DNA from: Gammaproteobacteria bacterium
GTDB lineage: Bacteria; Pseudomonadota; Gammaproteobacteria; Steroidobacterales; Rariloculaceae
Reading direction: 5' to 3'
Assembly: GCA_035513215.1 (NCBI GenBank)
Contig: DATKCK010000106.1
Span: 15,651-79,650 of the forward strand
DNA: 64,000 nucleotides
Below, in pieces: positions 59,382 to 64,000 of the stretch. Below the pieces are notes generated by a model. The model was given only the letters and a program-made list of their open reading frames with translations. It did not search any database and was not told the DNA's origin. Positions within the stretch are counted from its first letter, which is position 1. Each line of letters begins with the position of its first letter. The translations under genes were made by a program, and so were the position numbers.

Positions 59382-61484
59382 ATGCACGCCGATCGCGCGA
59401 ACAAAAACCATAGTAAGACGACGCACGGGCTTGTCCTCGGACCCTTGCTTGCTCTGGCCTTCCTCGGACTTTCGTTCCTGCGGATCGTCGGCGATGTGGG
59501 CTCGGCCCTGTTCGGCGGCGAGGCGCGCATCGCGCCACTCGAGCAATCGATCTGGGGCATGCTGCTGGCCTGGCGTCTCGCCGGACATGCAGGTTCCCTG
59601 GTGCTCGTGCACGTCTCGCTTGGCGTTGCTGCTTGGGGCATGGCGTGGCTCACGCATCGGGCTTGGCCCTCGAGCGGGAACAGTCAGCGTGTCTGGACCT
59701 GTCTGTGGATGGTTCTGGCCGTCACATGGATTCTCGGTGCGAACGCGGCCTGGTTTCCTTCCTCGTCGCTCGGCAATCCCTATGCCGGGCTTGTGCAGGC
59801 ATCGATCGCAGGCGTCAGTATTTTCGATGTCCTGAGCTTCGGGATTGTGATCGCCATCAGTGCGACTGTGGCCCGCTTCGCATGGCGCCATCGACGGCTG
59901 TTCCGCCTCCCGGACTCTGCGATGGCCACCCCCATGGCTGCTGTCCTGATCTTGGCGCTCGCTGCGTCGATCTATGTGCCTGTCATCCGGGCGCCTTCGA
60001 CTGCCGCGCCGACGAAACCGAACGTCATTCTCATCGGCCTCGACTCGGTCAAAGCCGACATCAGCCGAGAAACGACAGACCTGTCCGTTCCTGCATTGCA
60101 GGCTTTCCTGCGCGAAGCGGCTGTGTTCCCGGATACAACGACGCCGCTCGCCCGAACCTTTGCCGCGTGGGTATCGATCCTTACGGGGCGTCATCCGCAT
60201 ACGACGGGCGCCACAGTCAACCTGTTGCCGCGAGACCTGATAGAGACGGGCGAGACGCTCCCAGAGCTGCTGCGGGATGCCGGTTACGAGACGGTTTACG
60301 GAATCGACGAGGTGCGATTCTCGAACATCGACGAGTCCTACGGGTTCGACAGGATCGTGGGGCCAAGGATTGGTTCGGCCGACTTTCTGATCGAGTTCTT
60401 CGGCGACACGCCGCTTTCGAACCTGATCGTCAACTCGCGGGTTGGCGACAGGCTGTTTCCCGAGCTGCATGGCAACCGGGCTGCCGAAGTGCTCTACGAT
60501 CCGGACACCTTCATACGCGACCTCGATCGGGGTCTCAATTTCGACTCGCCGACTTTCCTCGCCGTGCATCTCACTCTGGCCCACTGGCCGTACACTTGGG
60601 CCGCGAGCGAGCCCCGATCCCGCGGAACGGTTGATCCAGGGCGCTACGCTGATTTGTATGCTGCCGCGATCAAGCGCGTCGATCGGCAATTTGCCGATCT
60701 GATGGCGATGCTTCAACTTAAAGGCGGGCTCGACAACGCGATCGTCGTCTTGCTCTCGGATCACGGCGAATCGCTCGGCGAGCTCTCGCCACTATCGAAC
60801 GAAGCCGGTCACGTGTCGCCGCTTCTCGGCAAAGCAGAGGTCTATGGCCACGGTACTCATGTCTTCTCCGACGACCAGTACAAGGTATTACTGGCGGTGA
60901 AGAGCTACGGCGACACGCCGCTGGAGCTTCCACCCGGAGAACGCATTGATGTGCCGGCCTCACTCGAGGATATCGCGCCGACTCTGCTGGATGCACTCGA
61001 TCTCAATTCCCGGGATGCGTTTGACGGTTACTCGCTAATGCCGCATCTGGGTGACCGCGAGCATCGCGATGTCGGCAAGGCTTCGACGCGAATCCGATTT
61101 CTGGAGACCGAGTTCAATCCGCCCGGCATTGCGATCGAGCAACCGATGACGGGGAGCGCCATCGCCAAAGCATCGACCTCGTACCGGATCGATCCCGTGA
61201 CGGATCGCGTCGAGGTTCGGCCGGAACAGTTGAGCCGGATCCTCGCCAGCCGGCAGTATGCCGCCGTTGTCGACGGCCACTGGATGGCGGCCGTGCCCGC
61301 TGCCGACCTGGACGCGCAGCACATTGTCTATGTCGACGCGAAGGAAGGCGGTCCGGTATGGCTCGAGGCTCCGCCGTCCGCGGAAAGCGCGCCCGTTCAG
61401 CAGCGACTCTGGAGTGCCCTGCGAAGCCGGTTCGAGCCGGTCGCGTCACGGCCAGTTGCCGCCGTTTCGCCCGCGTCGCGGTAA
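59382..61484 (+). CDS. membrane-anchored alkaline-phosphatase-superfamily (sulfatase-fold, PF00884-like) enzyme with EptA/PptA-like architecture
   Basis: 700 aa. About 5 N-terminal TM helices, then PNVILIGLDSVKAD, LTGRHPHTTG, HLTLAHWPY, NAIVVLLSDHGESLGE, GHGTH, EDIAPTLLDALDL. I see no C/S-x-P-x-R formylglycine motif. In a by-eye alignment a Thr (ARTFAAW) sits where the nucleophile would be. Confidence 0.7.
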   Translation: MHADRANKNHSKTTHGLVLGPLLALAFLGLSFLRIVGDVGSALFGGEARIAPLEQSIWGMLLAWRLAGHAGSLVLVHVSLGVAAWGMAWLTHRAWPSSGNSQRVWTCLWMVLAVTWILGANAAWFPSSSLGNPYAGLVQASIAGVSIFDVLSFGIVIAISATVARFAWRHRRLFRLPDSAMATPMAAVLILALAASIYVPVIRAPSTAAPTKPNVILIGLDSVKADISRETTDLSVPALQAFLREAAVFPDTTTPLARTFAAWVSILTGRHPHTTGATVNLLPRDLIETGETLPELLRDAGYETVYGIDEVRFSNIDESYGFDRIVGPRIGSADFLIEFFGDTPLSNLIVNSRVGDRLFPELHGNRAAEVLYDPDTFIRDLDRGLNFDSPTFLAVHLTLAHWPYTWAASEPRSRGTVDPGRYADLYAAAIKRVDRQFADLMAMLQLKGGLDNAIVVLLSDHGESLGELSPLSNEAGHVSPLLGKAEVYGHGTHVFSDDQYKVLLAVKSYGDTPLELPPGERIDVPASLEDIAPTLLDALDLNSRDAFDGYSLMPHLGDREHRDVGKASTRIRFLETEFNPPGIAIEQPMTGSAIAKASTSYRIDPVTDRVEVRPEQLSRILASRQYAAVVDGHWMAAVPAADLDAQHIVYVDAKEGGPVWLEAPPSAESAPVQQRLWSALRSRFEPVASRPVAAVSPASR

Positions 61485-61526
61485 ACAACGCCGGTTCGGC
61501 AATGGCTGGCTCGACGCGGAGCAAGC

Positions 61527-63224: not shown

Positions 63225-63377
63225 TCCGTATCAGTGCACCTGCGGGATTCGCTTCGGAGTATGTCGGTTCACGGCGACCAGAAAACATACTCAGTTCACG
63301 TTTTCGTTTAACCTAATACGCTAGCCTCACGCGCACTCTGTGACAAGGAGCGGACTCGACTCGTTTGGGCCCTACTT

Positions 63378-64000
63378 ATGAAGCTGATTGTCCAAATACC
63401 CTGCTACAACGAGGAGAAAACGCTACCAACCGTTGTCGCCGACATACCGAAGCATATTCCCGGGGTCGATTCGGTCGAGATACTCGTCGTCGACGACGGA
63501 TCCACGGACATGACCTACGAGGTCGCCGAAAGATGCGGCGTGAATCACATCGTCAGAAACCGACAGAACAGAGGCCTTGCGAGCAGCTTTCGCACGGGGC
63601 TGGACACGGCCCTCCGCTTGGGCGCGGATATCATCGTGAACACCGATGGCGACAACCAGTATCCGGGCGGCCGCATACCTGCCCTGATTGAGCCGATACT
63701 CACCGGGAAGGCGGACATCGTGATTGGCGATCGGAGAGCCGGCGGGTATCAGGGGTTTGGATGGCCCAAGAGGTGCCTCCAGCGAATCGGCAGTGCAGTC
63801 GTCGCGCGGTTGTCCGGTCTCGAGGTGCCAGACGCGGTCAGTGGATTTCGGGCGTTCTCACGCGAGGCCGCGATCAATACCAATATCGTTTCGAGCTTCA
63901 GCTATACGATTGAGACCCTGATTCAGGCCGGCAGGAAGCGTTACGCGATCGTTTCCGTGCCCATCACGATAAACCCGACGACCAGATCGTCACGGCTGTT
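63378..64000 (+). CDS. family 2 glycosyltransferase (polyprenyl-phosphate sugar synthase-like), 3'-truncated by the window end
   Basis: Not in the ORF track because there is no stop inside the window. ATG 63378 reads MKLIVQIPCYNEEKTLPTVV...EILVVDDGSTDMT...NRGLASSFRTGL...IVNTDGDNQYP...VSGFRAF, open to position 64000. GT-A motifs DDGS and D-x-D (DGD). Confidence 0.85.
   Translation, partial: MKLIVQIPCYNEEKTLPTVVADIPKHIPGVDSVEILVVDDGSTDMTYEVAERCGVNHIVRNRQNRGLASSFRTGLDTALRLGADIIVNTDGDNQYPGGRIPALIEPILTGKADIVIGDRRAGGYQGFGWPKRCLQRIGSAVVARLSGLEVPDAVSGFRAFSREAAINTNIVSSFSYTIETLIQAGRKRYAIVSVPITINPTTRSSRL

Follow-up and report, generated by a model that had tools for sequence, protein, structure and literature searches.

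Enzymes known to modify type IV pilins come from a few pathogens and comprise PptA/PptB and Pgl of Neisseria and TfpO and TfpW of Pseudomonas. The modifications they install alter susceptibility to phages, recognition by the immune system, aggregation, and behaviour at surfaces. A stretch of 64,000 nucleotides from a Gammaproteobacteria bacterium of the Rariloculaceae (GenBank assembly GCA_035513215.1, contig DATKCK010000106.1, positions 15,651 to 79,650 of the forward strand), hereafter the window, ends in a type IVa pilus locus beside which lie three further genes. They encode a membrane protein with a sulfatase-fold domain, here called SULF, a membrane glycosyltransferase of the GT-C fold, and a GT2 glycosyltransferase. 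Genomic and structural comparison suggests that the three genes probably form an island for post-translational modification of the major pilin, PilA, within a pilS/pilR-pilA-pilBCD locus, and that the island has two separable parts. Pilin accessory modification is a known kind of system; here it is most likely built from enzyme families not previously described.

The closest described systems fall into three groups. Members of the alkaline-phosphatase superfamily with a Thr nucleophile (NPP, EptA/PptA, LtaS, OpgB) transfer phosphoryl or phosphodiester groups by way of an intermediate bound covalently to the Thr, and the membrane-anchored members move a phospholipid head group to a periplasmic acceptor. 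Neisseria PptA sets the precedent for a pilin as the acceptor of such a phospho-form. In two-step periplasmic glycosylation, GT2 enzymes of the DPM1/ArnC type make polyprenyl-phosphate-sugars, which GT-C enzymes use outside the cytoplasm; a D-E pair in loop 1 is typical of the protein O-mannosyltransferases. Glycosylation enzymes encoded at pilin loci include TfpO/PilO and PglL, O-oligosaccharyltransferases of the Wzy_C family. They also include TfpW, the arabinosyltransferase of P. aeruginosa group IV pilin, which is encoded directly downstream of pilA and has a DDx motif in loop 1, a YX6PFX7P motif, and an all-alpha C-terminal domain of TPR type (bioRxiv 10.1101/2020.04.19.049825). In the literature consulted, coverage of which is incomplete, no pilA-linked sulfatase-like gene was found, weak evidence that the present one is new.

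SULF and its linkage to pilin genes

All three open reading frames marked beside pilR-pilA in an earlier sequence-only reading of the window are confirmed:

59382-61484, plus strand: SULF, 700 residues, a membrane protein with five transmembrane helices and a sulfatase-fold domain (Pfam, AlphaFold2 model, hydropathy, alignments)
59382-59996, plus strand: N-terminal five-helix domain of SULF, family-specific, residues 1-205
60156-60158, plus strand: codon of SULF Thr259, the counterpart in alignments of the sulfatase formylglycine Cys
61527-63224, minus strand: GT-C-fold membrane glycosyltransferase, 565 residues, assigned from AlphaFold2 fold and motif; family previously unnamed
63105-63125, minus strand: codons for N34-V-N-W-D38-E39-F40, an invariant motif at the beginning of periplasmic loop 1
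63378-64000, plus strand: predicted GT2 polyprenyl-phosphate glycosyltransferase (PF00535), N-terminal 207 residues, cut by the window end

SULF is a member of the alkaline-phosphatase superfamily; its catalytic domain faces the periplasm. The Pfam family Sulfatase (PF00884) matches residues 213-540 (E=6e-28), hydropathy and the AlphaFold2 model (pLDDT 83) agree on five hydrophobic, helical segments at the N-terminus, and Foldseek confirms the sulfatase fold together with its C-terminal subdomain (E ~1e-18, target TM-score 0.5-0.6). In a profile alignment Thr259 coincides with the formylglycine Cys of arylsulfatase 6hhm. The sulfatase motif C-x-P-x-R is replaced by T-F-(P/A)-A-W in the SULF family, which lacks the C/S-x-P-x-R sequence of formylglycine enzymes. 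D221, T259, and S459-D460-H461-G462-E463 are invariant across 33 homologues, and D221, T259, D460, and H461 are the putative metal and nucleophile residues. The earlier description of a 700-residue protein with five membrane helices, a sulfatase fold, no formylglycine motif, and a Thr nucleophile is thus borne out.

Its assignment to the EptA/PptA family is not. SULF shares with Neisseria PptA and with EptA/LptA/EptC the order of five N-terminal helices followed by a periplasmic alkaline-phosphatase-superfamily domain, as well as the Thr nucleophile and an Asp/His metal site, and it resembles PptA in this architecture and nucleophile only. Unlike those enzymes it has no EptA-type N-terminal domain: when the full-length sequence was compared with Pfam at E<=0.01, the matches were limited to Sulfatase, Phosphodiest, and DUF229, and EptA_B_N (PF08019) was not among them. 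Its nearest sequences and structures, C-terminal subdomain included, are S1 sulfatases, choline sulfatase, and phosphonate monoester hydrolases (PMH), which with the missing domain rules out family membership. A PDB profile search reached sulfatases at E=1e-20 and LptA/EptA (4kav) only at E=1.4e-5 over ~60 residues. The top 50 Foldseek matches are likewise sulfatases, choline sulfatase, and PMH, while YejM and an LtaS-like protein match far more weakly. The 205-residue membrane domain, with conserved motifs in its loops, matches, at E<=1e-3, no more than 70 of 1.84 billion representatives; those of full length all measure ~610-730 residues, like SULF, and the remainder are fragments, which marks SULF as a compact and distinct family as far as sequence can tell. 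No curated NCBIfam-type model matched it.

The synteny comparison called for in the sequence-only reading gives a strongly positive answer for SULF. Homologues of SULF show 36-66% identity, and a profile scan of a metagenome collection returned 80 SULF loci with 36-51% identity, 65 of them with a pilA match and 70 with some type IVa pilus gene. Among the 37 informative loci, in which the sequence extends 1 kb or more to each side of SULF, pilA is present in every one and lies no more than 1 kb away in 33; the remaining four (L083-L085, L126) show the order of the window, in which pilR stands between pilA and a divergent SULF. Of the 65 loci with a pilA match, 60 have both genes on one strand. 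SULF has no fixed place with respect to pilA: it may be upstream or downstream of it, or divergent from it across pilR. Independently called genes give the order pilS-pilR-pilA-(pilin)-SULF-...-pilB-pilC-pilD-coaE-zapD. While pptA is not known to be linked to pilE, SULF is tied firmly to pilA. Povalibacter uvarum (L001, 11725-16118) carries two full-length SULF paralogues, back to back and divergent, between a GT-C gene and pilA.

A separable GT-C/GT2 pair

The 565-residue protein is a GT-C enzyme by its modelled fold, as had been suspected from its D-E motif in loop 1 and its soluble C-terminal domain. Every significant PDB match of the AlphaFold2 model (pLDDT 90) is a GT-C enzyme (EmbC, ALG12, PglB, ArnT, AglB, Pmt4, STT3), ArnT giving the best TM-score at ~0.55. 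Only fold comparison gave relatives; a PDB search with the sequence profile yielded nothing meaningful. Of the Pfam families proposed for the three proteins, PF00884 and PF00535 are significant on SULF and GT2, but PMT_2 (PF13231) scores 18.4 bits on the GT-C protein, below its cut-off of 26.1. Some homologues pass PMT_2 in precomputed annotation, and UniRef names one RgtA/B/C/D-like and NCBI another ArnT family; no NCBIfam family matched the window protein. N34, N36, W37, D38, E39, and F40 of loop 1 are invariant in the family (NxNWDEF), and D38 and E39 are the candidate catalytic acids. The model places a soluble alpha/beta and beta-rich (beta-sandwich) domain from about residue 385. Public annotation of the protein (P0001, 531 residues) starts at the GTG of codon 35 and loses the first membrane helix (63122-63224, minus strand); the 565-residue start is favoured because K26, L29, R32, and N34 are conserved in homologues.

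TfpW, with which the sequence-only reading had compared this protein, turns out to be a parallel that differs in its defining features. Both are polytopic, encoded at a pilin locus, and equipped with an acidic loop-1 motif and a large periplasmic C-terminal domain, and both would draw on a lipid-phosphate-sugar donor. By the published description of TfpW, however, the window protein stands apart: it has NxNWDEF in place of DDx and an alpha/beta plus beta-sandwich domain in place of the TPR domain, its gene is separated from pilA by pilR and SULF, and it is paired with a GT2 of the DPM1/ArnC type rather than with DprE1/E2 genes.

The GT2 gene is divergent from the GT-C gene, and only the N-terminal part of its product is covered by the window. 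PF00535 matches at E=4e-26; the best NCBIfam matches are AglJ, PpgS, and dolichyl-phosphate-hexose transferase, all below their cut-offs. A full-length relative, from which the C-terminal membrane segments are read, matches the structures of dolichyl-phosphate-mannose synthase (5mlz) and ArnC; two hydrophobic stretches lie at its C-terminus. The protein is, by homology, a polyprenyl-phosphate glycosyltransferase of the DPM1/ArnC/AglJ/PpgS type, in keeping with the earlier assignment to the GT2s that load polyprenyl phosphate. The pair accordingly recalls ArnC/ArnT, GtrB/GtrC, RgtE/RgtA-D, and DPM1/PMT in the homology of its GT2 to dolichyl-phosphate-mannose synthase and ArnC, in a GT-C fold nearest to ArnT, and in a PMT-like D-E pair. 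Unlike the ArnT and PMT systems, it falls below the PMT_2 threshold, belongs to no NCBIfam family, is proposed to act on a different acceptor, and is linked recurrently to pilus loci and SULF.

A GT-C profile scan with one genome per species returned 79 loci, whose neighbourhoods were taken as 10 kb. A GT2 homologue (50-67% identity) flanks the GT-C gene in 68 of 81 rows and usually abuts it directly, so the conserved unit is the GT-C/GT2 pair. Type IVa pilus genes lie within the neighbourhood in 12 of the 79 loci, and in these the module always falls between pilS/pilR and pilA/pilB. All 12 are gammaproteobacterial (Povalibacter, Pseudoxanthomonas dokdonensis, Luteimonas arsenica, Panacagrimonas, and Steroidobacteraceae-like metagenome-assembled genomes). 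In P. dokdonensis and L. arsenica the order pilA-SULF-GT-C-pilB runs on one strand without other glycan genes. Three of the carriers are in culture, namely Povalibacter uvarum DSM 26723, P. dokdonensis DSM 21858, and L. arsenica. The sequence-only reading had treated the three genes as one cluster that might travel with pilA. This holds for SULF but only in part for the GT-C/GT2 pair, a widespread mobile module separable from SULF.

Tad/Flp genes accompany the GT-C/GT2 module in ~11 further loci. In six Shewanella species the operon adjoins a Tad-type locus, an assignment that rests on RcpC, a secretin, and an A24 peptidase, as motif search found no Flp pilin genes there. Tad/Flp genes also lie near the GT-C gene of Mesorhizobium delmotii, and in a deltaproteobacterial metagenome-assembled genome SULF-GT-C is divergent from flp-tadV-tadE-tadE-cpaB-cpaC-tadG. 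SULF and GT-C occur together in 20 loci, 18 of which contain pilus genes; the remaining two are truncated by the edge of the locus. A neighbour-joining tree places the window GT-C in a clade of 17 sequences, 13 of them linked to type IVa pili, and the pilus-linked proteins of Panacagrimonas, Shewanella, and the deltaproteobacterium in separate clades.

Several loci carry additional conserved genes. A 440-467-residue AAA-type ATPase of unassigned family is conserved beside the SULF-GT-C operon in Tad-linked loci (L037, L049, L052, L068, ~800-4500; L081, 11914-13317), directly downstream of the GT-C gene in the deltaproteobacterium (L081). In Shewanella a conserved 90-residue open reading frame stands directly upstream of SULF (L047, 2052-2327; equivalents in L042 and L049); it has one hydrophobic segment, matches no known family, and is not pilin-like. 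A sulfotransferase-family gene lies within the GT-C/GT2 module of several Alphaproteobacteria (L027, L028, L030, L060; e.g. L028, 8754-9701), which hints at a sulfated glycan product there. Some Steroidobacteraceae (L006, L011, L014, L015, L070) that carry the module by clpB or mutS outside the pilus locus encode a second unclassified polytopic protein of ~520-540 residues.

The pilus locus and its variable slot

The type IVa pilus locus occupies the minus strand at the window end, together with coaE and zapD:

51543-52346, minus strand: zapD
52977-53876, minus strand: pilD (A24 peptidase), pilus assembly gene
53863-55080, minus strand: pilC, pilus assembly gene
55131-56855, minus strand: pilB, pilus assembly gene
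57052-57080, minus strand: hairpin resembling an intrinsic terminator directly 3' of pilA (13-bp stem, 11 GC pairs, T-run)
57134-57634, minus strand: pilA, major type IVa pilin, 166 residues (Pfam Pilin and N_methyl)
57715-57730, minus strand: sigma-54 promoter consensus TGGCACGGGGATTGCA upstream of pilA, with 11/11 consensus positions matching
57902-59227, minus strand: pilR, sigma-54-dependent response regulator (Pfam Response_reg, Sigma54_activat, HTH_8)

A 433-residue open reading frame (52351-53652, minus strand) is a merged call of which only the C-terminal half is coaE; the pilD frame overlaps it in a different frame.

PilA has a long, Ser/Thr/Gly-rich C-terminal loop bounded by a disulfide and is presumed to be the substrate of the neighbouring modification genes. 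With the other pilins encoded next to SULF homologues it makes up a coherent family, represented by 57 unique sequences. A sigma-54 promoter and a terminator bracket the gene, as described for the pilin-accessory cassettes of P. aeruginosa. The promoter is the sole match in the intergenic regions scanned, none preceding SULF or GT-C/GT2. No tRNA gene was found as an island border between 45000 and 64000.

SULF, GT-C, and GT2 occupy the position after pilR at which pilS does not follow in the window. In relatives that share the window's gene order, pilS lies beyond the inserted genes (L083, L085); in the metagenomic relative L085 these are SULF, a 525-residue weak sulfatase paralogue, and a 466-residue methyltransferase-like gene, with pilS next on the opposite strand. 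The island therefore almost certainly sits between pilR and a pilS beyond position 64000, and its content past that point is inferred from relatives L085, L002, and L001. An antisense frame at 59322-60764 (480 residues) was considered as the missing pilS and rejected as a shadow frame: it has no Pfam match and runs across the SULF frame, which is well supported.

The slot around SULF, between pilR/pilS and pilA/pilB, is variable. Its commonest state has no extra cargo. Close relatives have a Wzy_C gene, of the O-antigen-ligase Pfam family that also includes TfpO and PglL, adjoining SULF in place of GT-C/GT2 (L082, 1957-3336; L163, 10142-11461). Relative L164 carries a GtrA-like gene, a GT87 GT-C, and a 609-residue gene of no assigned family between pilR and pilA (2444-7093), and after SULF a 528-residue sulfatase paralogue, an 80-residue open reading frame, and a 475-residue gene of no assigned family (10079-13324). 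A SULF paralogue with a methyltransferase-like gene is a further cargo, and the pair of paralogue and ~470-residue gene recurs in eight metagenomic loci. The remaining cargo is the NxNWDEF GT-C together with GT2, to which GT4, methyltransferases, LPG_synthase_TM, or a Wzx-like gene may be added. The genes are thus encoded with the major pilin gene, and relatives hold alternative cassettes at the same site, the pattern also seen in P. aeruginosa, where tfpO or tfpW follows pilA according to pilin group. The window itself has no Wzy_C gene; where TfpO and PglL transfer preassembled glycans en bloc from undecaprenyl pyrophosphate, transfer from a polyprenyl-monophosphate-sugar is proposed here.

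Base composition agrees in part with the earlier impression that the region is less GC-rich. Both flanking intergenic regions have a GC content of 0.53, and GC at third codon positions (GC3) is 0.73, 0.76, and 0.74 for the three genes against 0.80 +/- 0.04 for window genes, which puts all three in the lowest tenth. Overall GC, on the other hand, differs little (0.59-0.63 against 0.64 for the window). The lower GC3 fits acquired cargo.

Proposed pilin modification and competing explanations

The observed folds, motifs, topology, and gene linkage suggest donors, an acceptor, and a chemistry for a modification of PilA. Given what is established for Thr-nucleophile enzymes and for DPM1/ArnC-GT-C pairs, SULF would add a phospho-substituent, and GT2 and GT-C would add a sugar. 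The five membrane helices of SULF would hold its metal-dependent domain at the inner membrane, where processed pilins await assembly. Thr259 most likely would form a covalent phospho-enzyme intermediate, from which a phospho-substituent, probably derived from a phospholipid head group, might pass to a pilin hydroxyl. The action would be that of Neisseria PptA/PptB, EptC, or LtaS on a different catalytic scaffold. GT2 would load a sugar on undecaprenyl phosphate at the cytoplasmic face, the lipid-linked sugar would be flipped, and GT-C, through D38/E39 of loop 1, would transfer the monosaccharide in the periplasm either to a pilin Ser/Thr or to the substituent added by SULF. That the catalytic parts face the periplasm agrees with the periplasmic-face modification first suggested for these genes. 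This specific chemistry has a nearly even chance of being right.

The same toolkit, a five-helix sulfatase-fold Thr enzyme, a polyprenyl-phosphate-sugar GT2, and an outside-acting GT-C, is found in LtaS/OpgB (MdoB) with CsbB (GT2)-GtcA-YfhO (GT-C). Unlike LtaS and YfhO, the island genes belong to a Gram-negative pilus locus and have no detectable specific sequence relationship to them. The window, cut as it is, shows no flippase; in relatives, genes of LPG_synthase_TM-like or GtrA-like type are present. The parallel, an analogy, serves as a lead only. It colours a more ambitious and rather doubtful extension, in which SULF and the NxNWDEF GT-C would together decorate type IV filaments, as a module that type IVa pili (in Gammaproteobacteria) and Tad/Flp pili (in Shewanella and a deltaproteobacterium) took up independently of each other, and SULF would represent a new class of transferases for pilin phospho-forms, with the scaffold of sulfatases and PMH. 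In its extreme form, SULF would place glycerol-phosphate-like units on pilin, polymerised or attached, and GT-C would glycosylate them, giving the pilus a teichoic-acid-like decoration by the logic of LtaS/CsbB/YfhO.

Several observations weigh against pilin modification by the three genes. SULF in the window is divergent from pilR, is not co-oriented with pilA, and has no sigma-54 site before it. The 57 SULF-linked pilins show no single invariant, family-specific Ser/Thr acceptor; their comparison brought out only the 'S/T-E-G' position general to type IVa pilins and, within the C-terminal loop, a stretch rich in Ser and Thr. The Tad link in Sphingomonadales and Pedobacter is weak, consisting only of a CpaF-like ATPase 5-8 kb away. 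The distribution of GT-C/GT2 and the catalytic domain of SULF supply further objections, and each underlies a rival explanation.

The better-surviving rival, though unlikely, holds that GT-C/GT2, and perhaps SULF, modify an envelope glycan (lipopolysaccharide or lipid A, periplasmic glucans, or exopolysaccharide) and that the pilR-pilA interval is a mere insertion hotspot. Occurrence of orthologues in a glycan context away from pilA had been named beforehand as grounds for doubting a pilin role, and for GT-C/GT2 this is in part what is seen, though not for SULF. In about 55 of the 79 GT-C/GT2 loci the 10-kb neighbourhood shows no pilus gene; GT4, methyltransferases, and LPG_synthase_TM-like proteins are the common companions there, with sulfotransferases in some cases. 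Six loci with 40-45% identity, close relatives among them, lie elsewhere, mostly beside clpB or mutS and in the company of GT4, methyltransferase, pyruvyl-transferase, and asparagine-synthase-like genes. Together with Wzx-like genes, such partners are typical of polysaccharide clusters, the RgtA/B/C/D-like and ArnT names of homologues point the same way, and the lower GC3 suggests acquired DNA. An insertion hotspot nevertheless leaves unexplained why SULF stands beside pilA in all 37 informative loci. Nor does it account for a cargo that always consists of periplasm-acting modification genes, for the recurrence of SULF and GT-C beside unrelated Flp pilin loci, or for SULF-GT-C inside pilA...pilB on one strand in two Xanthomonadales.

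Quite unlikely is a second rival confined to SULF, which would make it a pilus-specific hydrolase, a phosphodiesterase or sulfatase trimming a modification or a surface polymer for pilus passage, or else a non-transferring assembly factor like TfpY. The nearest structures of SULF are all hydrolases, and because its catalytic domain is closer to these than to known phosphotransferases, transfer rather than hydrolysis has to be inferred. TfpX, TfpY, and TfpZ are pilin accessory proteins that do not modify pilin, and YejM/PbgA, among the matches of the SULF search, is a membrane-anchored sulfatase fold that can be non-catalytic. A pseudoenzyme would not, however, be expected to keep the full metal and nucleophile set invariant. 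A Thr nucleophile is typical of phosphoryl-transfer members such as NPP, EptA, and LtaS and not of sulfatases, and the conserved, family-specific five-helix domain exceeds what a soluble hydrolase needs for anchoring.

That the pilA linkage is an artefact of sampling a narrow lineage with conserved gene order, its adjacency functionally meaningless, is highly improbable: the SULF-linked pilins are a coherent family and the loci share a flanking backbone (sucCD, nadE, bamD; coaE, zapD), but the SULFs are only 36-50% identical and vary in position relative to pilA, cassettes are swapped around them, SULF also stands beside Tad/Flp loci in Shewanella and the deltaproteobacterium, and several separate pilus-linked clades appear in the GT-C tree.

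Modification of PilA by SULF, with GT-C/GT2 as exchangeable cargo, is thus the preferred explanation. The linkage of the SULF family to the major pilin gene is about as tight as that of any accessory gene known. The family occurs widely in Gammaproteobacteria of soil and sediment and is accompanied by swappable glycosylation cassettes. If the proposal is right, the family would provide a new catalytic scaffold for the phospho-form modification of proteins, and SULF would serve as a genomic marker of modified pili in environmental bacteria. It would also suggest that the pilins of Tad/Flp systems are decorated by the same module.

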